Of a stretch of 38,632 nucleotides of DNA, positions 19,061-38,632 are shown in pieces. The notes below the pieces were generated by a model. The model worked only from the letters and a program-made list of their open reading frames with translations, was not told the DNA's origin and ran no database searches. The stretch comes from Bipalium vagum (taxonomy: Eukaryota). The stretch spans positions 1-38,632 of the forward strand of contig JBBMKC010086060.1 in assembly GCA_037834085.1 (NCBI GenBank), read 5' to 3'. A program made the position numbers and the translations under genes. Every line of letters starts with the position of its first letter. Positions within the stretch are counted from its first letter, which is position 1.

Positions 19061-22000
19061 TCATATTTCCATCCCGCAGGTTTCAGCCCTGTTTCTTTTT
19101 GTCGATTCCAAAGAATTATATATCTTAGCAAATTCAACGGGTCTTCCCCAACCAAAGATTTTTAATTTGATAAAATTTATTACGATTTTATCGGTCCCCT
19201 GACACTTTACCAGAGAAATTAGAATTTCTTGGGTGACACTTTTTGATTTTTTCATCATACAGTTTTGGTAATTTTTCAGATCCCTTTCTCGTCATAGAAT
19301 TAATTAAGATTACTCTCATCAATTTATATTATACTTTCATATCATACATATATTGGTTCGCTTTCGATGATTTGGCTTTAAGTTGAAATGTACTATAAGT
19401 ATATTTATTGGAATTTGTCCAAATGTGAACATATCCCCCATGGGTTTTCTTTCTATCAAATAATTTTCCCATATAAATAATGAAATAAAACAGAAATATT
19501 GATTTTTTTAAGTATTTAGATTACAAGGACCGATTTTTTGTTAAATTTCAATTTATTTCTTTTAAAGAGTTAATAGTTGGAATATAAAATAAAAAATATT
19601 TAACATTGGTCCCATGTGACTCAAAGTAATTCTTTTTATTTTTCTGAATGACATTTTACATCAATATATTTGTTTATTAATGTCCTTGAATAAAATTATT
19701 TTGATTAAAACTGGAAATAATAAATGCCAGTCACTGAACCAACAAATTGGGATTTTCATTAAGAAAACTTCCTTTTCTTTTATAGATCAATCAAAGTTTG
19801 CTATTTTCCTGTGTTTCTTGGACTTGTGAAATTTCTTTTGTCATCTTTTTGTCAATGCTGTACACTTGAGTGACCTGGCCTCTTTGAGGTTAATGCTACA
19901 AAAACCTTTTGAATCACCAACATAAAATAATAGATCGACACATAAGTAATATCTTTGTTTTAGTGATTCATATTCAATCAATTAATAAATTAATTGATCT
20001 GGTCAATACAGCATTTCTTGATCGAGATAAATTTCGTTTCTTGTGAAACTGTAAATATTAACATTCAAGAATTTTTCGAGTCCATCCAGTAAATTCTTAT
20101 AAATTACTTTGTAAATGGAGTGACATTGTAGGAAACAGTGATACCTAGGTATTTAATTAATAAACCTGCTTTGTGTCATGTTTTGTTTTTAAAGTTTTCC
20201 GTAAATAACAACCTAATATTTCACGACTTGAGAGTCTCTAATGGAGGATGGCACAATCTTTTAATATTTTTTGATTTTAATTAATGAATTTTTAATTTTT
20301 CAGAAACAGAGTAAGGCAATTTGCTCTACTGCTAATCTTCTTCAACCGTTGATCTCTGATAATCAACAGATTACAAACTTAAGACGATTGAATGATGAGG
20401 TATGTCTTTTTTTAATATACGTTTTTTCCAATGTTCATCCAATATCATTGGAAGGGCGTTGGTCTTTGGGTCTTTTAGATATCAATCTCAATCATTACAA
20501 TTGTTATCTGTCTTCTTTCAACAAATTAGATCTCATATCTGAGTTCACAAGTCATCAGTGCAGGTCGCGTAGTTTTATATAACGATGGTGAGAATTGTCC
20601 TCAGCCAATTAAGGATCATTTTGACACATTGAAAATGGATTGGGAGTCCAAGGTTGAAAAGATTACCCAGGAAATTGATAAACTCACCGATACATTTGCA
20701 TTTGTTTCTGCACAAGGTATGGATATTGGTATTTCTTCTGTGGAAATTGTTACATAAACTATCCAGAAAATGCTATTGATATTGAATCGGAAAAGATGGA
20801 AGTTAGCATAAGAAATTGTTCGGCACCGGGGGTTGTAGAGGGAACATCGAGAATAGCTCGACGAGCAAATCGAATCGCTCAAAAGGTGGATGTTGAACTG
20901 TCACAGAACGAGGATCCGTTATATGTGGAAAATGTTGGAAAAACAGTCAACCAACTGAGACATAGTATTGATTAGTTATTGATTAATTAAGTCTTTTTGT
21001 TCTGTAAATTCAATTTGGAAATATTGATTGTTTTTTCAATAATTCCTCTGTCAGCAATCACTCCCATGGCTATGACTGCTAAAACATTGATGACAAATTT
21101 CAAAGATCCAAATATTGCTGAGGAGTGGCGAAAGCAAAACAACCTACTCCGCCAAGCGGTTCAATCGGTTAAGTACGCAGTTCGAGCGCCTGTCGTCACT
21201 GATTTGTCTCAAAGTCTTCAAAGTGTCAACTTATCATCTGGAGGTAAATTTTATGATAAAAAATGCTTGGTCTTTTTTCGAAAAACTTGTTTTTGTTACT
21301 TTTTAAGTCTTTTATTGCCTTGATTTTTTTCGTTATAATTATTCAGATTTTAAGAAATTTTAGAATGATGATTATTGAAAAAAATCTTGAACACTGGTCT
21401 GATTTCTGCCCACATATTTTGGTTCTAGTCTTTTCGACCACTCCTTATATTATTTCATATACATTATAATATCATATAATATTTATTTATCTTTTTGTTA
21501 ATCAATAATTTACCACAGAAAACCTAGATATTTAATATTATAATATTTAAACAGAATTTTAATATCAATAAAATTATCAATTGACATTTTTATTATTAGT
21601 TTATTAAAAATCAATTTTATATTTTTGATTTCTTTATTAATATTAGAAATCAATGTTTTTAAGATTAAAATTATATTAATTAATATTAAGTTAAATATAT
21701 TTTGAGATCATTATTCTTAATTAAATTTCAATTTTTAACCTATCTTTTAAATTAATAATAATAATAACAAATAATATTATTTTTATTATTCTTCTGGTTA
21801 TTAAAGGTTATTACCAAATAATATGGGACATATAATTATGTCAAAAAAGGTTAAATTTAGTCATATTAATGTGATAGTCACACTAAAATTATGTAATATA
21901 ATATTAAAAAACCTATGAAAATCATAAATATTTATTAAATGAACATCAAATTTATTTATTAGCCAAGTCATATATATCTGGTTCATCGTGAATTTCAATT

Positions 22001-25000
22001 AATTGGTTAACGTATTTTAACTAATCACTTAATAAAGATTTTTCTTTGTAGTAATGTCTAATAAGACATGGTCTTCTTCAAATACTCCATTGTGTCACCA
22101 GTTTTTAAATATGGGTTAGTACCAAGAATTACAAGTATTATATTCCTTTTTAGGCAATGTTAACTTTAAATTTAGTCATTTGACAGATATGTAACTAAAT
22201 ATTCACACTTTCAATCTAATCATTTTTATTAGGCAATATCCATTAGATAATTTCGTACTTTATTTATGGATAATCAATATTCATTTTTTCTGGATTTAAA
22301 AAATTCTCAAAGGATTGTGACATTATATTTCGGAATTTTTATTTTAATTTTCAACTAATATTTTTATTATCACTGAAATAATAACTGTGGCTGATTTTCG
22401 TACGCATTTATTGATTATTATTATTAATATCATAACGGTGAGTTCTAATATATCTACCCATTTTTGTGTAAAGTTATTTCAATTATTTGAGAATGGTTTG
22501 AGACTATACATACCTTTAAGCTTATCATGTTCCGCCTACAACTGAAACTTTATCCATGCTTGAATCGACATCAATGGACACGGGGGCTTTGATGTTTTCA
22601 TCCCAACGAAGTAGCGATGTCAGCTCCATATTGTCCGACAAGACTAATGTTGGGAACTTGTCAAGCACTTATTATCCCAATAAATCAACACTCACATCAA
22701 ATGTCGACTATTACTCTTCAAATAGTAATATCGTTACTACAGGTATTCCACTTACCCTCCCACATAGCGCATGCATATAGCACGTTAAATGTGACTTGTA
22801 GAACACGTAGGATGTTTGCTATGTTCAAGTGTTGCAGATCCGAATGTGTTTTTATGTTCTTTTATTTTGTGCTTGTTTTGTCATTTATGTCGTCAATTAC
22901 TTCAGTGGTTCGGTTTTTTGAAATCAATTGAGAAGAATATTTATTTCAATATCTTATAGCTATGAAACCGTTATATATTTCAAAACTATATTTTTAAATG
23001 TATAATATAAAAAAACCAAAAATAATAGTTAATAATAAAAAATATTATATAACATAAAGTATAAATCTATAATAAAAAAAATTAAAATATCACAATGATT
23101 GTGTATTTTTCAAGTATGCTTCTTAAGAAATCAATAACAATCTTTTATTTCTTAAAATCAAAATTAAATAATTAATTAAACAAATAATCATTCATTGGAA
23201 TGCCTAAATTCATGTTTTTTTTTGAAAAATCATTTCGTAATGATTTCCTTTTAGATATTGATTTACTAAGTAAATTTTATTATTGAAATGATTAAATTAT
23301 AATTAGTATTAAATAATAAAAAATATTTTTAAAGTACTATATTAAAATTTAATCCTTTATGTAAATTAAATAATTTTTAATAAATTTAAAATTTTCTTTT
23401 AAAAATTAATTAAAAGACAATTAATTGGTTTAAATAAATATTTATTTAATTATTTTCATCAAATAAACATTATACTCAATCTTGTCTTTATGAATTCCGA
23501 AAGTGTCGATAACGTAGCGGTGACTAACAATTATTATTGTTTTAGAAAATTGATAAATGTGAAAATTACACTATTTAATTAAAGTTCGTTTTTTTATAAA
23601 TGATCTAAATTTTATGAAAATATTTTTCATTCTGGAAATTTATTTGTAAATCAATAATTCACAAATAAATAATATCTTTCTCAAATAATGATCGTCTTTT
23701 ACTGTTCATAAATATTCAGTGAATCTAATTTACAAAATCTTCGTGAGCTGATGTGAAACACTACAGATAAAAAATAATTATTTATATTTAGATTTCTTAT
23801 GAATCGGTGAAAGAATCTGTAAAATGATCTCGCAATTTAAGTAGATCGTTTAACAAGCCGGGTTGGGCCCGGAAATTGTTTTAATTTTGCATAATAAATT
23901 TTTGTTTTATTAATAAACAGATTTTAATAATTCCCAATTTCGAGCTAGGTTATGATATAAAATAATCTGTGTTTTAAAAATTCATAATTATGCACACTTG
24001 TTTATTTGTAGGATTTCTGTTCATTTTTTCATAATTATTAATTCTCGATTTATTTTATTAATATTAAATGTATTTATCAAAAGGAAAATGGAAGGACATT
24101 TTATTATTATAAAAGTGCTTCATCTTAAACAAATTATACAATTATTTTTTCACACTCATCAATAAACCAGTTTTAATAATGACTCGACCTTTTCATTTTT
24201 ACCACATCCTTTTCTGTTTGACATTGTTATTATTTCTTGCGGTGTTCATGATGCGTTCTTTATTGTTAAGAATCTTACACAGCCACAACTCGTTGTTCCA
24301 TTACGGTAAATTAAGATAATTTTCTAAGATTTGAAGCTTTTCTTGGAAATTTAAGTCTTGTCTTGTCTTCATATCTGTTGTCATTTTAAAAAACTGATAA
24401 AAATTTTTATAAATTTCATTAACTCAGATTAGATTAAAGTGATTATAATGAATGAATTTTTATACAGTCTTTAAAAGAAGATGGTTTTGATAACATTGCG
24501 ATGATATTAATATTATTCAAATGATAACATTAACCGTGATTACAATAAGCAGTCTCTACTGGATTTCATTACTGTGAGTTACATTATTAATTAAACCTTT
24601 GTTTCGGTACTGTAGCAATATTTGACAATGTCGCTGTATCATAGCTTCCCTTTATTTACGTCTGCAAAAATAAGCGTTGGTCGATCAATACTGTCAAATA
24701 TTGTCACAATTGTTTTCTTTTTGCGAGATCACAACTCCTTTCTTATGACACGTAAAATAGGATTGTACTGTTTTATAAATGATATGATTTATACAAAGTA
24801 AACAAAAAGGAGAAAGTAAAACGACAGTTGTTAGCTTTAGAAAGTATACTTCTCTTAAAGGGGTCCGTCATTTTCTTTCTCAATTGTGTTCTTTTGATTT
24901 TTTTGTGTATACAAACAGAAATTTCGTTTTCCAATAATAATTCTGTCCTCAAATTTATTTTGTGGACAATTTTATATTTGTGACGTTGCTTTTGTTTGAA

Positions 25001-28000
25001 TGGATTTTTTTCGTGTATTGGCGATATTTCTTAGTTCTAAATGACCATTGAATCTATCTTGGTCTTGAAGGCATTTCTTCATTTTATATATTTTTATTGC
25101 ATGACTGAAAATATTTAAATTACCACACTTTAGATTAAAATAATTAACTTTAGTCCTTCGTGAAACCCCATTCTATTTTACAGATAAGTTATTTTATAAC
25201 TAAGATGACGTCTATTATTGACCCCGAAATGGATCATATGATAACGGTTTTCTTAATGTTTTCAGTTCATTTTGTAATGGATATTATTTTTACTAGATTT
25301 CAACAATAGTGGTCAGGTGAGAAACAAAAGTGAAAGTGATATGTTCAATTAATATTATATAAGCACACCATTTTGGTTTGATAAATACTAATGATTTGTT
25401 CCATTTGTTGTAAAGAGCTTTAGGTGCTTTGAAGGGTTTTGAGATTCATTTCATAATTGTCGAACTTTATGTAGAGATTAAAGAATATTAAATCGTTAAC
25501 TGGCAGGACGAGCACCGTTCGTCCGTATCTTTATAGTATCATTTATATGATTCAGTGTGCGAGAAAAATTTTTTTGGCCTCCTCACAATAATAGTTATAC
25601 GCGAATCTAGCGAATGGACATAAGGTTAGTTTCAGTCAAGGCAATAATGGGCCCGGCAGTCAATGTGTTAAAATATAATTCAACTATAAAGGAATGAAAA
25701 AACATGATATAAATCTATTCCATTTAGCATATGTTATCTTGATCTTGTATTATAAATCTTTTTAATGTCTTTCCACCATCTCAGAGACTGGTGAAATGAA
25801 AATCTTTTTTTTGCTAGATTAAATTTGAAGATCGTGTCACTTAAATTACTATTTAAAATGATTTATCTTATCTTTTCCCCTGTAGAACCGAGAAGTGATG
25901 GAGAGGCAGATGATCAATTCGATTTTCCAGCAGCTCAACCCAACCAGCCAATTTTGGTAAAGAGATTCTAGTTTCATTTGTCGATATTTATAATGGATAT
26001 TTTTGATTGGAACTCTGTTAGGCAGCTGCACATGTTCTACATTCAGAGGCCAAGCAGTGGTCCAGTAAGGATAATGAAATTATCACTGCTGCCAAGAGGA
26101 TGGCTAATTTGATGGCTAAACTAAGCCAATTAGTCAGGTTCTTGTTTTTTTTTCATTAATTGATGTGGATTTTTTTCATTATAAAATCTATTAAAAATCC
26201 AGCTGACTTTGATTTATTAATTATTTTCAACAGAAATATTTTTGGATTTGCGCTTTCTTTTACTTTTCCAGAAATTTTTTATTTGATGGAAGAGTTTCTC
26301 AATAAATCTGTAACGCTGAACTACTTAATTAAAACTAATTTAAAATAAAAATCTTAAAGATTATTGGATTGGGAAGAAAGTATTTGACGAATTTATTTTG
26401 AAGAAACAAAAGTCATGAAACTATATGAAAGTATATTTTTATTAATTTATGAATTGTCCACTGTTATCAAGGACCTGTTTTCATTTCCCAGGAAGCATAA
26501 AATTTCCTCATTCATAAATCCACTTTTTTCGATATTAGAAAAATAAAATATACCTCAAATAAGGGTTTCGATTTTCGATACTAAAACTGACAAATAAAGA
26601 GCGAAACAATTCAATTAGTAACTTAATTTACTGATCAAAATTTGAAACCGTCGAGTATATTCTAATATTAATTAATCAATGATTATTTTATTTATTACAG
26701 TTAAATTATAATTAAATCGATTAATCAATTTCTATATTATTATATGTAATTATTATGAATAATAATGTTTGACAAGCAAAAAATATCACATAGATGAATA
26801 AAATAAAATACATTTTTTAAAGAAATTTTATGAATGAAATATTTTTTCGTGTTTTCGGACCTCAATCGAAGTAGCTGTAGCATGTTGTTTTTGTTTTAAA
26901 TGAATAATTTAATCTCAAGGTAATATTTATTTTTAGCTTTACTTTTGTAACTATAAAGTATACTATTTAAATTTGACGAAAGTTGTCGCTATTAAGGTCG
27001 TTGCGTTCCCATAAAACGCTCCGCACTATGTAAGTCTGTATTCTAAAAAAATTGTGTAACATAAGAAATATTAAATTAACTTTGACAAAAGACATGTAGT
27101 GATATCAAAGATCAACCGTGTTTTCTAAAACCATTGAAAGTAAATATAAAATATATAAGAAAAGGCTATGTTATTTATTTAAACCATGTGCGCCTTCACG
27201 TCGATTATCTTTTGTCTGGTAACAGGTAACTTCTTGTCATCAATGTTTTTAATTACTTTTCGCTCAGACCAACCGCGTCTTTGATATTAGATTTTCCGGA
27301 CTTAAAACGATTAGACCAATATTGTCCTACCCTAACCGATACTGCATCATCTCCATAAACTTTACAAATTTTACATTCTTGTCCTAATTATAATAAAGAT
27401 TTGAATAATATACAATTTCTTCTTTTAATGTGGTCATTAATAATAAAGAAATTTACAAATCTGGAAAAGATACCAACTCTTACATACAAAAGGGAAATTT
27501 TTCAGTCAAAGATATTAAAATAGTCGGAGGACATTTCGTTTTCACAATGTCTGAAAATTTTATGAAAAGAATATTGAATCCGTACTTCATAAAACGAGAA
27601 TATTTAAGCAAATCATTTATTTTTATATTGTACCATCAAAGGTTAACATTTAATTAAATATAATATTCAATTTCATTGTTTGATAAAATATGGAAAAACT
27701 TTTCCGTCACCCAATATTTTTAATATCTTAATTTTGTCTCCTGACATTTCTATGATAAGGCTATTAATTCTGATTATTAGAAGTCCACAAAAGAGCTGAT
27801 TCTGTTATTTGTGGACTTAGTTTGTGAGCTCAATTTCTGAGGAGAATGGCAGAACCAATTACTCAATTTTTATCAGCAATTTCTTCCTGTGGCTTTCTGC
27901 AGTTTATGATGATAATAATGATAATAATAATACTAATAATGAAGTAAAGAATTATTAAATGGCTATAGAAAAAAGCAGACTGGTGTTTTGTGAAACTAGA

Positions 28001-31000
28001 CAATAGGATGTCGGAAATCTCTACGAACAATGGATACTATAATGCTCTGGTTTTTCAGACATTTTTTCATCAGCATTATTATCACAGTGAATGAAAGTGT
28101 CAATAATAATGGTGTATTAAAAAATAAACAGTCCTTGTTAACATTTAATCATTTTGTGCTTAGCATATTCCAAAATGTTTTTTTTTCTAAAAAAAAATAA
28201 TGTTCATTTTTAAAAAATTGCATTTAGTCAAAATTCCAAAAATAATAATAATTGTTCTTTTTATTTTTGAAATTGTAATTTTTGGATTTTCACTGAAATT
28301 GCTTCATTTAAACAACACTTAAACTTTACACTGTGAATGTATAATTTTATCTAAAAGAAAATATTTGGTTTTTACTTTCACGTGTTTTGATGTTCATCTC
28401 GTTATCGATGTTTTATTAATAATGATTAGAAAATCTTTCACTTTATCAATATTATCAAAATTCGTCATAAGCACTCTAGAGGTAAAAATCAATGGCTTGT
28501 CAGCCAATTTTCCGAAAGTATTAATTTTTAAAACAATGTAATTTTGACCAATCAAAATTTGATTAAATATTTTAATTATTTAATGTATAAATTATCGGTT
28601 ATCAGTTATTAATCGATTAATTTAATTCTAAACTTTGTATTGAGAAAAAATATTTTTTAAAAATAAGTTTTAGAAAATCATTTGTTTAAAAAAATTCCTT
28701 TTTTTATTACTGAAAATTTAATTTCTTATTTTAAAAAAATAACAGACATTATTGATTTTAAAGTTAAATTGTATTATTTATTTTTATTTTAGTATTATTC
28801 GTACATGGTAAAGGAAATAAAAAAACTGTTAGACAGAATTAATTAAGATGTGTTATAATTTTGAGCTTTAAAAGTTTTAAAATATCAAAGTCTGAGTTTT
28901 TTCATAATTTATAATTAAAATAATTGATTTTTTATACTACATTTGTCCCTTCTCAGTTATATAAAATATTCAATGATTTTTTCCTCCGAATTTCTTTTAT
29001 TAATTCTGAGTCCTTTCAAATTTGTAAAGTTTTTCTCGTTATTTTAATATTATCATTTTTAATACTTCTGAAATTTTCAATTATCTTTAAAAAAAATCAG
29101 AGGAGAAAATGGTTCCAAGAAAGATCTTATCGATGTGGCCAAAGCCATAGCTGAAGCTTCAGAAGAAGTAACTCGGTGCGCAAGAAAACTCGGTGAAGCA
29201 TGTACAGATATTAGAATTAAAAATGTTAAAAGAAATAATTAGTAAAGAAAATTAAGTTACTTTAACCTTCAGAATTTGTTGCAAATTTGCAACCGGATAC
29301 CTACCATAGGTACACAGCTGAGAATTCTATCTACTGTCAAAGCAACAATGTTGGGAACCCAAGGTAAGATAAACCGTTGTAACAAATCAATATTATTATT
29401 ATTGATATTGTAACATGAGCTGGTCTAAAGGATTAACACCTATATACCCCTAACCCTAACCCAAACTGAACTTGTAATGCTTAATATGTTAAAATCTTCA
29501 TCTATTCTGTGTGAAAGCGAATGGGAAATTTTGTGAATTTATCTGAATATATTTTCCAGAAATTGACAACGAAGAAAAGGTTTCGGTTAATGTTTTTGCA
29601 ATGATTTTTTGACAAAAATATTTTATGTTTTTGTTTTGTTCCAATTGTTTAACATTTTTTCTATTCCTCTTTTCACAATATTATTTATTTATTTTTATTA
29701 TTTTTAAAAATTATAAGTATTACATATAATTTTAATCCCATGTTTCATTGAAAATTGTACTTTATCAAAAGTTCAAAGTTAATGTGTGACATAAATTAAT
29801 GATTGAAAATTATACAAAATAACTTTGATGTTTTGTGGTTTATAATAAAGGTAATAAATAAATTATTAATAATAATAATAAATAATGATGATAATAATAA
29901 TAATAATAAAATAATAATAATAAATATATTAATAAAACTGTTTAATTATATTAATATCCTGAAGACCAAAATTATTGATCAACGTGCTTTACTCGGGAGA
30001 AATATTTAGTACCAATTTCAAATTTGAACACACGGTTACATCTTATACTTGTACTGATGGAGGGCATATTGAGCAATTCCTGTAACATACATATTAAAAA
30101 GCTTCCACTCCTCTAATTTTATTTCATTTGAATGTTCAGTGTTGTACTTATAATAAAAAATATAAACAATATTTGTAATCGTTCCAGATTTTTGAAACAC
30201 CCGGTGTAGATTGTCTTTAATTTGGATCTTTGTAAGAAAACTATTGAGAAAAACAATGAGAATTTCTTTGAAGACAATGAGATCTTTATTATTATAAAAA
30301 AATTCAAAAATTATTCTTTGTTCTGATAAATGGAACAAATTGAAATTTTCTGTTTAATTACTTTATCTATATATTTTTTTTAATTCTTAACTTTTTTTTA
30401 ATATTTTGATAAATTTCATTTGATTATCGAAACGAATTTATAATCAATATTTTAGTTTTAATGAAATTTTTTTCGTATTGATTAACTTTCAAATTCATCT
30501 TTGATTTTCGTAAACTTAAGGTTTCAAACGTCCTGACTCTGAAATCGTATTACAAAAGATGGTCGTCTTCATCAAATCGTTGAATACATTTAGTTGATAT
30601 TTTAATTCAGCACGTTATTATTAAATAATTAATTTATAATAAATTAAAATTAATCGATACAGCCTCCCCCCATTCGTCCCCGTTTAGAATGTGTTGGTTT
30701 ATTTGTTTTAAATGATGCATAAACTGAATATTTTAATAGCAAAAAGCATAGAAAGCTTTTGCTTTATGAGAATAAATGTGTAACAAACTTTATTGTTGGT
30801 ACGTATTCATCTAATTTCTTATGTAATATTTTGAAATCATATCTTGTAAGGGAGCTCTGAAAAGTTGAGATTATTATTTTAATTTTCTGAAATAGATTGT
30901 GATTCCATTCAACGAATCAGAATTTTGTTTTAATCATTTACTGTGTAATATTTTTTTATTATCAGAAGATATTGATGATCAATCAGAGGTTGTGACGACC

Positions 31001-33731
31001 TTTACACAAGATGAATCTGAACTTAACTGTGGTAAAAATATTGAGCATGTCATTGATGTTTTTTATTGAATGAAATTGCAAAAGCTTGCTCTTTGTTGCT
31101 TTGGTACACTGCTTTCCAAAGAATATAAATATTCACTAGAATTTCTTCCAAATTATGACCCGATATTTTCGTTTCACTTTCTCACTTGCTTTACACCTTT
31201 TTTACTTCACTCATCAAAGTCACCGGTCAGAGTAAATATTTTGTCAATTTGACTATGCGATTTGTGGAGCTGCAAATGCAAAATGAAAAGAAATGTTCAT
31301 TTATATCTCCTTGGTCTTGGTTCCTTGGAATATTTTAATTTTATATTTTTTTAATTGCGAAATAATATTATGTTGTCAAGAATAAAAAAGACGAATAAAA
31401 TTTTTTGTTTTACCAACAATAAATAGATGATCATTTATGTATCTACCATCTTTACCCGTAATTTCTCCCTCAAGTGTTTTACGTTGTAGTGAAAGAATTC
31501 GGTTCGATCTATTCGAACCGAGTTCTGGTCTGTGTTATATATCAAATTTCTCTTTTTATTTGATTTATCTCTTCTGAAGTTTTCAAACCACCTTCGACAT
31601 TGTTAATGTCTAATAACTTCCTTTACATCTTTGAAGTTTTTTAGGTGTCTGATGTACTGAAGTTTTTTCTAAAACTATACATAAATCATTTGACCCGATT
31701 AATTTGTAAAATTATTATCGTACTTTGTTCCTTTTAAAGTTGTGCTGTCAAATAAATGAATTTGATAAGCATAACATAAAAATATTATTTCTTGACAGCC
31801 TAATATGTAAAGTAAGTTAATGCTGCATGTTTTTTATATTTTATCATTATTACTATTTTTATTAACATCATCAAATTTATTCCTTAATAAATTTTACACA
31901 TTTTTCTGCTATCATAAATCTGAATATTAAAACAAATTTTAATTGACAAACCATCGGAATGCTTTATTATTGTTAGTTTACATTTAAATTCCAAGTTTAT
32001 AATATTTATTTAAACTATATTATTATGAATTTATAATATTTATTTAGATTTTTTTATTATCAAAACTTTTGGTTTGTGCAGGGTGTGTATTAAGTAAGTA
32101 TAGGAATTCTTAACTCAGGATATATATCACAGTTAAATACATTCAATTTACATTTTTCTATTTCTTAGATGTTTAATTGTTTTAATATATCGATTTTATC
32201 CAATTTAATTACAGTAAATTCAAATTTCGATAATGTTCAATATTAAAGAAAGAGTACAAGTTGTTTTCCTGATAACTAAGATAAAATCAGTCATATGAAT
32301 CAGCTGGCATTTAGAAAATTTGAAATGGAAAAAGATACCTACAGCGTTGACAATGAAGAACATATTTTCAATTTTCAAATAGACTGAGGGTGTTTGTGAT
32401 CTTTAGAAGTCTGGAAGACCATCGATTGAAGATGAAACAATATGCGAAATAAATCAGATTTGTGAAGAATTATCTGAGAATTCGCAGTGAACTTCTATTA
32501 AACAACTTTGATGTAATTTTAAAACTGTACGCAATGTAGTACGAAAAGATCTTCAACTTTATTTATTATAAAACTTGACGATGACTATGATCAAAGAATT
32601 GCAATGTTCAAAAGCCTGATTAATGAAAATGACAATAATTCATCTTTATTTAAAAACATGATTTTCACTGATGAAGCGACCTTTTCCTTAAATGGATATG
32701 TCAATAGGCACAATTGCCGAATTAAGGACATTGAACCTCCTAAAGAAATTATATCACAGTCCCACTCAAGTTCAAAAGTTAATATTTGGATGGGTATTTC
32801 AATGTCCCGTGTTTATGATCGCTTCTTCTTTCATGAGAATGTAAACTAATACAACTAATTAAACATGTTTAATTCTGGCTTCATTTCACAACTTTATCAC
32901 AGAATTAAATTTAAAATAGTTCTTCAACAAGTTGAAGTACCTGCTCACTATTCACGTCTTACAAGAGATTTTTTAAACATCAATTTTCAAGGAAGATGGA
33001 TTTTCAAGGCTGGACCGTTTCAGTGGGCTTCCAGATCACTGGACCTAACATCTTTTAATTTCTTCATTTGGAACATCTGAAGACACAGTTATATAGAAGA
33101 AAAAGAAAAGTTATCCAAGACCTGAAAGATAAAATTCAAATGGAGGCAGCTGGAATAACACCAGAAATATGACAAAATGTAATGAATGACTTCTATAACC
33201 GCTTATATATGTGTATTAGAGTTAGCGTCATTCTGAAGAAAAATGTTAAATTTGAAAAAATAAAGGTTTGTGTCAAAAATTTGCAGTCTCATGTCGTATA
33301 TACTTTACGGTATCGCATTTTAAAATCGAATGCTTACTTTATGCACACCCTGCAATTTAAATGTAATTTTAAAATAAAAATTCAGATGATTAATTATTAA
33401 TATTTATCATTATTACTGTTTAGTAATTTTCAATAAATTCCAAAAGATAATATATAATTATATAATAATAATAATACTTTTGAATAAGTGTACTCATTTG
33501 AAGTCAAAAACAGATTTATTCTGAAATCAGTGTGTCATTCTTAATTTGAACTATCCATCAACTACTTTTCTGACATTTGTTGATCAAGATCAGTTTTGAT
33601 TAAGATCACATTCTAATAAACAAATTGTACGTGAGAAATGATATATTTTACACATAAAAATCGACTGTGGCAACCATATCCACATGGCTTGATTTTCACA
33701 TCAGTAGAAAATATTTTAACCACCATTTGTA

Positions 33732-33783
<52 letters not shown>

Positions 33784-34069
33784 CGATAATAAATATAAAA
33801 ACTGTGTCAATTCATAAATTTCAAGAACCGCATGATTGATTCTGAGTGGAAAATATTGATCGTAGCAAGATTTATGAAATGTGTCTTTAGGGTCTGATGA
33901 GGATCACGAGGCCACGGAAATGTTGGTTGGCAACGCTCAGAATTTAATGCAAAGTGTAATCGATACGGTACATGCTGCTGAGGCGGCTAGCATAAAATCG
34001 AGGGTAGACAGCGGTTATACGGTACGTTGGTGCAAAAGGAAACCTTGGTATCAATCAAAGCTGGCATAA
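3094..34069 (+). CDS. VCL: Vinculin, multi-exon gene, 5'-partial. Core exons: 3094-3239, 9126-9297, 11264-11484, 11558-11725, 15788-16136, 17654-17871, 20304-20399, 20530-20716, 20767-20964, 21055-21243, 25886-25956, 26022-26137, 29101-29224, 29273-29363, 33891-34069. Candidate cassettes: 22521-22742 and 30966-31031
   Basis: The spliced translation is collinear with vinculin: [22 protein letters not shown]..., [112 protein letters not shown]...[10 protein letters not shown]. All introns are GT-AG with matching phases. Confidence 0.97.
4570..5250 (-). mobile_element. Decayed mariner transposon
   Basis: Minus strand [12 protein letters not shown] (LLHDNARPH) and [18 protein letters not shown]. 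Boundaries approximate. Confidence 0.75.
6330..6830 (+). mobile_element. Decayed mariner transposon
   Basis: [24 protein letters not shown], and C-terminal DSTGDYFIE*. Confidence 0.75.
8220..8520 (+). mobile_element. Mariner transposase 3' fragment
   Basis: LLQENALFH...MGFETLTH...[19 protein letters not shown]. Confidence 0.75.
8570..8906 (+). mobile_element. Tc1/maT-like transposon 3' fragment
   Basis: [16 protein letters not shown] (cf. SPDLNPLDYYLWG), ending in TIR-like ...gaccctgTA. Confidence 0.6.
9126..9297 (+). CDS. VCL: Vinculin exon (D1; [57 protein letters not shown])
   Basis: Acceptor cttAG, donor G|GTAGAT, phase 0 to 1. Matches [25 protein letters not shown]...LPVLISAMK. Not in the ORF track. 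Confidence 0.92.
10020..10492 (+). mobile_element. Internally deleted mariner-like element with long inverted arms
   Basis: Inverted repeats of about 60 bp (10020-10080 and 10433-10492) enclose transposase remnants ACRRWIARF and [12 protein letters not shown]. Confidence 0.6.
11073..11123. repeat. (TTA)n microsatellite
   Basis: Perfect trinucleotide run. Confidence 0.95.
11264..11484 (+). CDS. VCL: Vinculin exon (D1/D2; GNCDQ...[24 protein letters not shown]...QWFSNNQ)
   Basis: Acceptor tgtcAG, donor CAG|GTTGGT. KNRN..EIIRVL motif. Confidence 0.92.
11558..11725 (+). CDS. VCL: Vinculin exon (D2; [22 protein letters not shown]...MCDLQRKGE)
   Basis: Acceptor ttcttAG after a 73-nt intron, donor GAG|[13 protein letters not shown] resembles DLRARGQ. 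Confidence 0.88.
12600..13730 (-). mobile_element. Probable decayed Helitron (Rep/PIF1-helicase) fragment
   Basis: Collinear degenerate motifs on the minus strand: NGA*ISAS (GRYISASEA), ARVMYV...FSLLLTSV (GRMYYV..FYLRLLL), GLFVIGGNG (FFIDGPGGTGKT), SGNFQKFHP (GDFRQILP). Confidence 0.45.
13882..15518 (-). mobile_element. Decayed near-full-length mariner
   Basis: TIR pair ttgggttgacaagaaagtaattgc and gcaattaatttcttactaatctat. ORF remnant [17 protein letters not shown]...[12 protein letters not shown]. Confidence 0.85.
13954..14394 (-). mobile_element. Tc1 (DD34E) deletion derivative nested in the mariner
   Basis: TA-flanked TIRs (...aaagtcttcggccacctagtaa and ttactaggtgactgaagacttt...cagtg). 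Motif [18 protein letters not shown]. Confidence 0.8.
15788..16136 (+). CDS. VCL: Vinculin exon ([12 protein letters not shown]...[19 protein letters not shown]...NNLAMQ)
   Basis: Acceptor tgtAG, donor T|GTAAGA. Matches HLEGKIEQAQRWIDNP. Confidence 0.92.
17654..17871 (+). CDS. VCL: Vinculin exon (D3; [16 protein letters not shown]...DQVAENFID...[14 protein letters not shown])
   Basis: Acceptor ttttcAG, donor AAT|GTAATA. Resembles QEVSDVFSD...NREEVFDERAANFE. Confidence 0.9.
18000..18560 (-). mobile_element. Mariner transposase fragments
   Basis: N-terminal YEFRF..INEASG-like remnant and [11 protein letters not shown] (cf. PFLDRIVTCDE). Confidence 0.6.
19023..19060. repeat. (TA)n(TG)n compound microsatellite
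   Basis: Directly visible. Confidence 0.95.
19065..19400 (-). mobile_element. Possible Merlin (IS1595-like) transposase remnant
   Basis: Collinear remnants II*IDESNL (VQIDES), [11 protein letters not shown] (GPWVFG), KRNRAET (RRDAATL). Confidence 0.4.
20304..20399 (+). CDS. VCL: Vinculin exon ([32 protein letters not shown])
   Basis: Acceptor tttttcAG, donor GAG|GTATGT, phase 0-0. Confidence 0.85.
20530..20716 (+). CDS. VCL: Vinculin exon ([17 protein letters not shown]...[34 protein letters not shown])
   Basis: Resembles LTPQVVSAARILL...EHFETMKNQWIDNVEKMT. AG/GT boundaries. Confidence 0.92.
20767..20964 (+). CDS. VCL: Vinculin exon (D4; [10 protein letters not shown]...[28 protein letters not shown]...)
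   Basis: Follows a 50-nt intron. IARRANRI and EDP motifs. Confidence 0.93.
21055..21243 (+). CDS. VCL: Vinculin exon (end of D4 and start of hinge; [10 protein letters not shown]...[29 protein letters not shown])
   Basis: Resembles TISPMVMDAK...AVAKVREA. Donor G|GTAAAT. Confidence 0.92.
22521..22742 (+). CDS. VCL: Candidate Ser/Thr-rich hinge exon of vinculin (74 aa, phase 1-1, skippable)
   Basis: Acceptor tacctttaAG with an in-frame stop just upstream, 222-bp open frame, donor ACAG|GTATTC. In frame with both neighbours and GC-richer than its flanks. I recognise no homology. Confidence 0.65.
23850..25671 (-). mobile_element. Decayed piggyBac-like transposon
   Basis: End ...ggcagtcaatgtgTTAA, a typical piggyBac terminus. 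Minus-strand remnants IDSMVI (IDESMV), YRQYTKK, KQRHKYK (KRHKYG), KTIFF. Left boundary uncertain. Confidence 0.5.
25886..25956 (+). CDS. VCL: Vinculin exon (strap; [24 protein letters not shown])
   Basis: Acceptor cttttcccctgtAG, donor TTG|GTAAAG. FP...NQP motif. Confidence 0.88.
26022..26137 (+). CDS. VCL: Vinculin tail exon (H1-H2; [39 protein letters not shown])
   Basis: Strong match to [38 protein letters not shown]. Confidence 0.96.
26364..27714 (-). mobile_element. Decayed, internally deleted mariner
   Basis: TIR-like ends tattggattgggaagaaagt and acttttccgtcacccaata. HTH remnant [26 protein letters not shown] at about 27280-27370. Confidence 0.7.
29101..29224 (+). CDS. VCL: Vinculin tail exon (H3; [41 protein letters not shown])
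   Basis: Resembles [38 protein letters not shown]. Phase 2 to 0. Confidence 0.95.
29273..29363 (+). CDS. VCL: Vinculin tail exon (H4; [30 protein letters not shown])
   Basis: Near-identical to [28 protein letters not shown]. Preceded by a 48-nt intron, donor G|GTAAGA. Confidence 0.97.
29955..30207 (+). mobile_element. Tc1/rosa-like transposon 3' end
   Basis: C-terminal DGGHIEQFL* followed by TIR-like tttgaaacacccgg. Confidence 0.6.
30966..31031 (+). CDS. VCL: Candidate 66-bp acidic cassette exon in the vinculin tail H4-H5 loop ([22 protein letters not shown])
   Basis: Acceptor tttttttattatcAG, 66 bp open in the required phase, donor TGTG|GTAAAA. Phase 1-1 matches the host intron. Confidence 0.65.
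32079..33352 (+). mobile_element. Full-length but inactivated DD41D (rosa/Visitor) Tc1-mariner element
   Basis: TIRs cagggtgtgtattaagtaag and cttactttatgcacaccctg. ATG at 32233. Motifs [30 protein letters not shown][V]EVPAH...GRWI...[11 protein letters not shown][N]FFIW, with 41 residues between the two mutated catalytic positions. Confidence 0.9.
33733..33783. repeat. (TTA)n microsatellite
   Basis: Directly visible, with one interruption. Confidence 0.9.
33891..34069 (+). CDS. VCL: Vinculin last exon (H5 and C-terminus; [23 protein letters not shown]...[14 protein letters not shown])
   Basis: Acceptor tctttAG, canonical vinculin C-terminal motif, TAA stop. Confidence 0.97.
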
Positions 34070-36826: not shown

Positions 36827-37550
36827 CAGTATAACCTGCTTAAACAGAACAAAAATGAAACTACAAAAGTTTATTCTGCTTAAACGATATAATCATTAAA
36901 ATAAAATACGATGTTGTAATTAAATTTTATTTCAAGTTAAAATATTTCGAAATTTTTCTCTGGATCAATTTTTTCTTGAAAAGTCTATCTCTGAGATCAT
37001 TCTCAACGTTAAGTAAGTTGATTTAAATAACTCCATTGTAATTTTCTGTAAAATATTAGTATTCGTTAACTATTTTTAAAGCTTTTCAAACCTCACCAAT
37101 TTCAATTTCATTCGTTTTATCCAATGGTTCTAATTACAGCAATTTCGGATGAACCATGAATATTCTCAGTTTCTTCTTTAATCCTTTAAATCTCGTCTTG
37201 ATTCAAAAAATTCGGCTAAAACATTAGATTCATCTTTAAGTTTTTTCTCAATCAGAGCATTTACATCTTTAGAAGTCTCAAGAATGTTTACTTGTTGCGA
37301 TAAAATTGAATGATGAAATCCATTATAAATTGTTCCTGAGGATATTCTTTCCCAAGCATCCGATATCATTTGAATTGCATCAAAAACATTATTATTGTAT
37401 TCTTGATTTTTGTCAATACAGTTTATTAACTGAACAACCAGACTTTTTCGGTAATTCACTTTAAAATTTTTTATTATTCCTGTATCCATAAGTTGCAACA
37501 CACTTATTGTATTTGATGACAAGAATATCATTTTTATGTTTGTTAAAATA
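36827..37550 (-). mobile_element. pogo/Tigger transposon 3' half (DDE_1 remnant)
   Basis: NIKMIFLSSNTISVLQLMDTGIIKNFKVNYRK...DAIQMISDAWERIS (cf. FLPPNTTSVLQPMDQGII). TA-CAGT terminal repeat at 36825-36830. Confidence 0.85.
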
Positions 37551-38632
37551 CTGTGGAGGCTACGAGGATCAGAGCCGACAGCGACAACAACAACATCACC
37601 AAGCACAGTCTCAACCAATCCCGATAACCAACAGTTATCATAAACTATTCCTTTATTGTGCTTAACAATTCTCCTTTATTGTGTCTCACAATTCTCCTCT
37701 ATGATATTGTGAAATTTTAATTGTTTTATTGTGTTTTTATTTAAAAAGAAAAAAATATATGTATATATCTATTAAATGTATTTTGAAATAATGTAAACCA
37801 ATTTTGACCGAAATGAAGTGAGAAACTGAATAATAATTAAATGATAATTAAATAATATAAAATAAATAAATAAATAAATAAGATGTAATGTAGAATAATG
37901 GATTAATATATAAAATTATTATTAGGAAGGAATTTATATCATTATTATTATTATTATTAGATTCATACAAGAAAATTTTAAAAGGTAACACTAGGTTACT
38001 AAAAATAGAGATTTCGATAGAAATTTTAGAGGCAATTGTTAAAAATAGGGGAAAAATTAATTAGTAAAATTATTTAAGGAAAAAGAAACTTACTAAAAAT
38101 AGAAAAGATGAAAAAAAGAATTATATAAAAGGAAGTAAAATTTTTAAAACAAGGACAACAAAAATATATAATAAAACAAAAAACACTATTATTATTATAA
38201 ATCAAAAAACTCAATTTGGCAATTTCACGCTACGACAACTCAATCCCCACAATAAATCATTGCATATATAACTTCGACGGGCAATTCAATCAGATTCATT
38301 AGAGCGTTAGACAACCATATTAATTTTTAGACATTTCAGGATTTGCAGCGTAACTAAGACAGTATAAATAAGAATCGCAAACTTAATTGAAGACGACAAA
38401 AGAAAAGAGTAAAGTTTAAAAGTCAATCAGACTAAATTCAGTGCAAAATTACAACATAAGTTATTCAGGTTTACTAAAAGAAATCATCATACCAATTCAA
38501 TCAACCAGTCGCCAATTCCATCCGTTTCCATTTATAGGCGCAAGACCCCTAGGATCAATTCAAGTCGTGAGAGTGATTACACTTCCAATTAGTCATCCGC
38601 ACTACCTTCGATTTTACGCCATTCCAATCGAC

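Follow-up and report, generated by a model that had tools for sequence, protein, structure and literature searches.

The head and the tail of vinculin are a solved textbook pair, and the hallmarks of the variant metavinculin are muscle-restricted expression and a loss of actin bundling; in the field of force sensing, the activation of vinculin and the role of metavinculin, its only well-studied splice form, are under active investigation. The tail of human vinculin is anchored on D1 by K944, R945, I997, T1000, T1004, R1008, and E1015, with positive residues of the tail set against negative residues of D1 (PMC5807537), and the combined change K944A/R945A/D1013A/E1015A perturbs this head-tail lock and induces bundling (PMC10354202). 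On actin, R1008 and Q1018 form bonds and E1015 and E1021 make force-dependent bonds, while changes of E1015/E1021 barely alter unloaded binding or bundling (PMC10721916). The basic ladder that binds lipid includes K944, R945, and R1008, and the site for the PIP2 head group consists of H1-H2 and the C-terminus, not of the H4-H5 loop (PMC12180986). A report on alpha-catenin, the sole match for "H4-H5 loop" in our literature searches, places this loop on actin near the C-terminal extension of the neighboring molecule (PMC7588232). For alternative splicing in flatworms, GCUUGC is described as the top MBNL-1 motif of Schmidtea, with an enrichment downstream of those exons that stem cells leave out, and a 216-nt vcl exon is assigned to this class in the supplement (event SmeEX0005650; PMC4978528).

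The locus compared with these systems lies in a 38,632-nt stretch of Bipalium vagum DNA (contig JBBMKC010086060.1, called the window below). Its gene belongs to the vinculin family, as judged from a match to the Pfam family Vinculin (PF01044, E 1.6e-19) and from exons matching residues ~110-970 of homologs. The Pfam match falls in the last coding exon (33891..34069, + strand), which codes for helix H5 and the C-terminus and has one match in the genome. The preceding tail exons, likewise on the + strand, encode helices H1-H2 (26022..26137), helix H3 (29101..29224, with basic residues kept at the K944/R945 positions), and helix H4 (29273..29363, a constitutive exon). The tail shares 110 of 165 residues with a vertebrate representative, and identity with homologs falls to 25-50% in the head exons; a search for the nearest relative using one head exon gave no match. 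In a quick tree of 30 rows, a setting in which long branches can attract each other, the protein stands on a long branch beside those of trematodes and cestodes (SH-aLRT 100), and its origin from a flatworm that belongs to neither group is thus likely.

Between the H4 and H5 exons lies a phase-1 intron of 4527 nt (29364..33890, + strand), in which the original prediction had placed a hidden 66-bp cassette exon coding for an acidic insert of 22 residues in the H4-H5 loop. Each of the signals claimed for it was recovered: a T-rich tract closing in CAG (30945..30965, + strand) is followed by 66 nt (30966..31031, + strand, phase 1-1) that keep the frame into the last exon and end in G|GTAAAA (5' splice site at 31032..31037, + strand), and inclusion would add 22 residues, eight acidic and none basic, to this loop. 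Scored with a splice-site matrix trained on 12 acceptors and 11 donors from the gene itself, which is a small training set, the segment ranks first among 46 in-frame AG..GT candidates of the last intron and second among 319 across nine introns of the gene. Both of its sites score within the range of constitutive ones, the donor with 6.0 in a span of 2.0-9.5 and the acceptor with 7.3, the best of four in-frame acceptors; the others are found at 30921 (score 6.5, yielding a 111-nt exon), 30987 (4.1, 45 nt), and 30969 (3.1, 63 nt). The 5' end of the cassette is a best guess because of these three further acceptors, whereas the position of its donor is fixed by peptide homology. We regard the segment 30966-31031 as very probably a real exon.

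The concern, raised along with the original prediction, that the segment could belong to a dispersed repeat was dismissed, together with an origin from a transposon, since a 301-nt region around it finds only itself in the 441-Mb assembly (with a search that skips very common words) and its frame (30896-31066) matches no Pfam family; tandem repeats overlapping the cassette were not found either. One public contig spans 30600-31400 unbroken and departs from the window by a single base, which lies outside the exon; it is probably the source of the window and hence not independent. One sequencing run aligned across the cassette shows no splice joint there, but the run resembles DNA and does not bear on splicing.

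Inserts at the same site are widespread in other animals, as judged from three protein surveys that left out the vinculins of C. elegans and Drosophila. The first, using the insert-free last exon as query, found 815 proteins, of which 120, mostly from molluscs, were listed and 117 parsed; among these matches listed, 82 of 117 carry a 13-residue insert, 33 skip it, and two contain a different insert. The second covered representatives at 50% identity (150 listed, 42 of 149 new ones parsed) and added Tachypleus, Trichinella nativa, and Schistosoma haematobium as carriers among the matches listed. A 7-residue insert of uncertain homology to the cassette was seen in Helicoverpa among these representatives. 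The third used a schistosome tail as query and is biased to inclusion (120 listed, 98 examined, 96 parsed); among the matches listed, 22 flatworm records include and 17 skip the insert, and all 57 records from other phyla include it, e.g., those from ticks, Scolopendra, Ramazzottius, Capitella, and Owenia. The named carriers in molluscs and annelids are bivalves, gastropods, Octopus, Capitella, Owenia, Lamellibrachia, and Dimorphilus, joined by Tachypleus, ticks, Scolopendra, Ramazzottius, Trichinella, schistosomes, Opisthorchis, and Spirometra. Inserts of 13-15 residues at the H4-H5 site therefore occur in molluscs, annelids, trematodes, one cestode, chelicerates, a centipede, a tardigrade, and Trichinella. 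Examples of model entries are Ostrea edulis X17/X18, Octopus vulgaris, Tachypleus XP_076353431.1, S. haematobium CAH8533870.1, and T. nativa KRZ51242.1. The few deuterostome representatives sampled, a thin set of amphioxus, urchin, sea star, sea cucumber, and vertebrates, have no insert.

The cassette of B. vagum immediately follows the H4 exon and precedes G[ST][DE]E, as the protostome inserts do, and it ends in SE[IL]xC, which is their usual ending. This agrees with the suggestion attached to the original prediction that some invertebrate vinculins carry inserts ending in SE[IL]xC before G[ST][DE]ED; homologous inserts are now found in molluscs, annelids, flatworms, arthropods, and Trichinella. 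With three motif matrices built without the window (from all inserts, non-flatworm inserts only, or flatworm inserts only), the last seven residues of the cassette rank first among 203 in-frame donor positions of the gene each time, and their score is reached by 1, 11, and 4 of 20000 shuffles, respectively. The remainder of the insert is different. Conservation is confined to the last 6-7 residues, the ancestral Pro-rich part is lost, and the front 15 residues resemble no homolog; compared to the usual 13-15 residues with a Pro-containing front, the cassette encodes 22 residues without Pro, although the weaker acceptor at 30987 (45 nt) would yield a 15-residue form equal to the trematode insert length. 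A derivation of the extra 21 nt from a duplicated acceptor was rejected, as the 8 of 18 matches obtained are reached by 19% of background positions. The acidity is mostly lineage-specific, since inserts of most phyla contain two or three acidic residues, and none of 16 tabulated inserts has a net positive charge; the B. vagum insert is the longest and most acidic form among those compared. On the strength of shared position and ending, the cassette is the B. vagum copy of an old protostome cassette exon, inherited from the protostome ancestor.

These comparisons bear on the reading of the segment as a silent relic or a chance pseudo-exon. The insert is present in none of the seven cyclophyllidean tapeworm records listed, so its loss may happen in flatworms, and the front residues without any counterpart would also fit a decaying or accidental sequence. 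Still, frame and splice sites are intact, the segment has the top rank in its intron, and its motif match stands far above those of the 202 other donor positions, despite the strong divergence of the gene in its head exons, which leaves this reading very improbable.

Optional use of the exon is on record in relatives. Protein pairs differing in the tail by the insert alone (13 or 15 residues) were found in 11 named species, hand-picked from listings and mostly represented by automatic gene models, namely five molluscs (Ostrea edulis, Octopus vulgaris, Dreissena, and two Crassostrea/Magallana oysters) and six trematodes (four Schistosoma species, Heterobilharzia, and Opisthorchis). A pair from Logan also differs solely by the insert, with the skip form on 13 contigs and the long form on one; it probably represents spliced mRNA because the contigs are 3-4 kb long. 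Among the Logan-only records of the first survey's listed matches, 4 of 21 include and 17 of 21 skip the insert. From these relatives, the cassette is predicted to be optional in B. vagum as well, which we consider likely. It might instead be constitutive in this species, or be spliced from another acceptor to give 45, 63, or 111 nt. The strength of its splice sites, which is like that of constitutive ones and thus gives no indication of regulated skipping, would agree with this, as would the three further in-frame acceptors, the 45-nt form among them having the 15-residue trematode length, and the tick records, which include the insert in 17 of 17 cases among the matches listed for a query biased to inclusion. 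We judge this alternative decidedly improbable in view of the skipping recorded in the six trematodes and five molluscs checked, the superior T-tract and score of the acceptor used for 30966, and the MBNL-type motifs downstream.

Two elements in the downstream intron may take part in controlling such a choice. A GCATG, presumably an Rbfox-type core, lies 14 nt after the donor (31045..31049, + strand), but is a weak indication, as it occurs in 5.8% of 200-nt windows of the gene. A candidate MBNL-type enhancer follows at 53-82 nt after the donor (31084..31113, + strand) and consists of a GCTTGC, the single copy on the + strand of the window (two on the - strand), and a cluster of three YGCY in 30 nt, which is also single on the + strand (three on the - strand). 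The cassette thereby shows the YGCY/GCUUGC motifs in the proximal downstream intron that are expected of MBNL-enhanced exons, in one instance recognized after the fact; since the cluster was noticed post hoc among seven motifs and corresponds to about 1.5% of windows before correction, it is treated as a lead only.

The insert falls between human-equivalent positions 1009 and 1012 of the tail. The tail was modeled with AlphaFold2 for a relative that has the 13-residue form (mean pLDDT 82.9, from a 56-row alignment). In this model, H4 ends at residue 900 and H5 starts at 920, both being intact, while residues 904-918 have pLDDT values below 50. The modeled tail of this relative corresponds to solved tails with TM 0.88-0.93, and its modeled long isoform to 1TR2 with TM 0.75 and rmsd 11.8. 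The five-helix bundle is hence predicted to stay intact and the insert to form a disordered loop, as modeled for the 13-residue form of the relative and not for the 22-residue form. An extension of helix H5 by the conserved motif finds no support, because H5 begins after the insert in this model. The motif could alternatively be the purpose of the exon, SE[IL]xC with its Cys being displayed to a partner or a modifying activity and the acidic front serving as spacer. This would explain why conservation from flatworms to arthropods is limited to the 3' end, with a variable length (13-22) and front, and the predicted disorder is frequent in motif-bearing alternative exons. We consider it improbable, however, as another residue takes the place of the Cys in Dimorphilus, Trichinella, and Gordionus, the last codons adjoin the donor, so that their conservation may partly reflect demands of splicing, and no partner is known, an Atlas look-up having given matches under 0.9 only.

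As to the function of the loop, we favor a loosened head-tail lock because the residues around the insert attach the tail to the head and adjoin actin. The lock had been absent from the original prediction, although its anchor residues flank the insertion site (PMC5807537, PMC10354202). The optionally spliced cassette would equip the tail, on the end that faces the head, with a flexible acidic loop, which might crowd the D1 docking surface and repel acidic D1 residues by its charge, such that less talin or force would be needed to open the long isoform; binding to the acidic surfaces of actin and lipid may be weakened along with this loosening. More weakly, we infer that MBNL binding downstream could promote inclusion in differentiated cells such as muscle. 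Inclusion shifts the charge count of the B. vagum tail from +5 to -3, and the tail keeps I997, T1000, V1001, T1004, E1021, M1022, and the basic residues at 944/945, yet is without R1008. The human interface map transfers imperfectly, because A or T replaces R at the 1008 position in the invertebrates examined. A flexible loop can also bulge out without harm, which runs counter to an effect on the lock. Judging from position and charge, the question whether the lock is the main target appears nearly evenly balanced, and the whole chain, from optional exon to a lock loosened by bulk and charge, is plausible but somewhat more doubtful.

Position alone cannot choose the lock over actin, because the H4-H5 loop also borders the actin site. 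The same optional exon might mainly affect the open tail, in line with the original prediction, by weakening or reshaping F-actin binding, catch bonding, filament packing, or membrane association. The actin bonds of R1008/Q1018 and the force-dependent ones of E1015/E1021 (PMC10721916), the closeness of the alpha-catenin loop to the neighboring molecule's extension (PMC7588232), the lipid-binding ladder with K944, R945, and R1008 (PMC12180986), and the charge shift are all consistent with such a role. However, B. vagum retains the core actin residues I997, V1001, M1022, and E1021, the bundle is predicted to be intact, the PIP2 head-group site is at H1-H2 and the C-terminus (PMC12180986), and changes of E1015/E1021 barely affect unloaded binding or bundling (PMC10721916), which makes the open tail an unlikely main target.

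A paper describing an H4-H5 cassette exon was not found in our literature searches, while subscription journals and splicing-atlas tables may list it; in one supplement file of a fly microexon paper (PMC8797185), the term vinculin is absent. The suggestion of an old, little-studied isoform therefore holds: the exon is real, old, already present in public isoform catalogs through automatic models from across protostomes, and apparently unstudied. Its independent evolution, as originally proposed, is correct relative to metavinculin, but not as an invention of its own, since the exon was inherited from a protostome ancestor. With optional use in both molluscs and flatworms, and with further copies in arthropods and one nematode, the cassette is unusually old. 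It lies among residues already charted for self-inhibition and catch bonding and provides a natural experiment with two states on how this loop tunes vinculin. The interest is limited by the automatic annotation of the exon in many species, the B. vagum copy mainly being a longer and more acidic version.

Compared with the known systems, the protostome isoform models are closest, sharing with B. vagum the insertion after the KATML segment, the lack of a net basic charge, include and skip forms on record, and in most cases the 3' motif; they differ by 13-15 residues with 1-3 Pro and 2-5 acidic ones versus 22 residues with no Pro and eight acidic ones. The MBNL/CELF-regulated exons of Schmidtea are similar in keeping the frame, in belonging to a cytoskeletal gene, and in the MBNL motifs of the downstream intron, and vcl itself is part of that program, but the vcl exon reported there (PMC4978528) is 216 nt long versus 66 nt in B. 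vagum, too long to be the cassette. Vertebrate metavinculin, with its 68-residue insert in VCL, also uses an alternative exon inside the tail and retains the five-helix bundle (PMC2873289, PMC12180986), and to this extent the cassette was rightly called metavinculin-like. The likeness was overstated beyond that point: as foreseen, the sites differ (H1-H2 versus H4-H5), the lengths are 68 and 22 residues, and metavinculin swaps helix H1 for H1' (PMC2873289), whereas the 13-residue insert of the relative is predicted as a low-confidence loop. An assignment to the metavinculin type was thus rejected by site, length, and helix replacement. We put forward only tentatively that the exon is an undescribed protostome splice switch, kept across at least seven phyla, whose acidic loop at the head-tail/actin interface would give a looser vinculin that is easier to activate, in differentiated cells (muscle) and under MBNL control. 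If so, it would be a functional counterpart of metavinculin at another site and by another mechanism, with B. vagum carrying its most extreme form.

The loop between helices H4 and H5 of the vinculin tail, into which the 66-nt cassette (30966..31031) would place 22 residues, looks like a splicing hot spot, as judged from the sequence variants carried by homologous vinculin records from the protein database searches (P0005, P0007-P0010, P0042, P0094, P0113, P0118, and P0126). Among the matches listed, the Helicoverpa protein has 7 extra residues in this loop, that of Gordionus has 11, and Haliotis rufescens carries a second insert of 14 residues; in several molluscs, the start of the last exon is longer by two residues. 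The cassette itself also has in-frame acceptors weaker than that at 30966, two of which would yield a 63-nt tandem-acceptor form starting at 30969 and a 45-nt exon (30987-31031) coding for 15 residues, the latter being equal in length to the trematode insert.

The tail exon at 29101-29224 encodes Ile at the position of human K975, which belongs to the second head-tail contact (with D4), and the self-inhibitory head-tail lock may therefore already be weaker in both isoforms.

Near the start of the last intron (29364-33890), at 29447-29462, the telomere-like unit CCCTAA is repeated roughly two and a half times. The same intron has a stretch of higher GC content (about 32520-33370), whose frames resemble a broken Tc1/mariner transposase by eye; a Pfam search of this stretch at E 0.1 returned no match. 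Downstream of the gene, a DDE_1 (PF03184) transposase fragment is found on the minus strand (37181-37675, E 2e-14). In the rough exon map, the short introns near 20717-20764 and 20964-21055 each have one end without a clear canonical boundary.

A second candidate exon is located in the hinge intron (22521-22742; phase 1-1, Ser/Thr-rich, 40% GC). At 222 nt, it is close in length to the 216-nt vcl cassette of Schmidtea, which is listed as event SmeEX0005650 in the supplement of PMC4978528 as excluded in stem cells.
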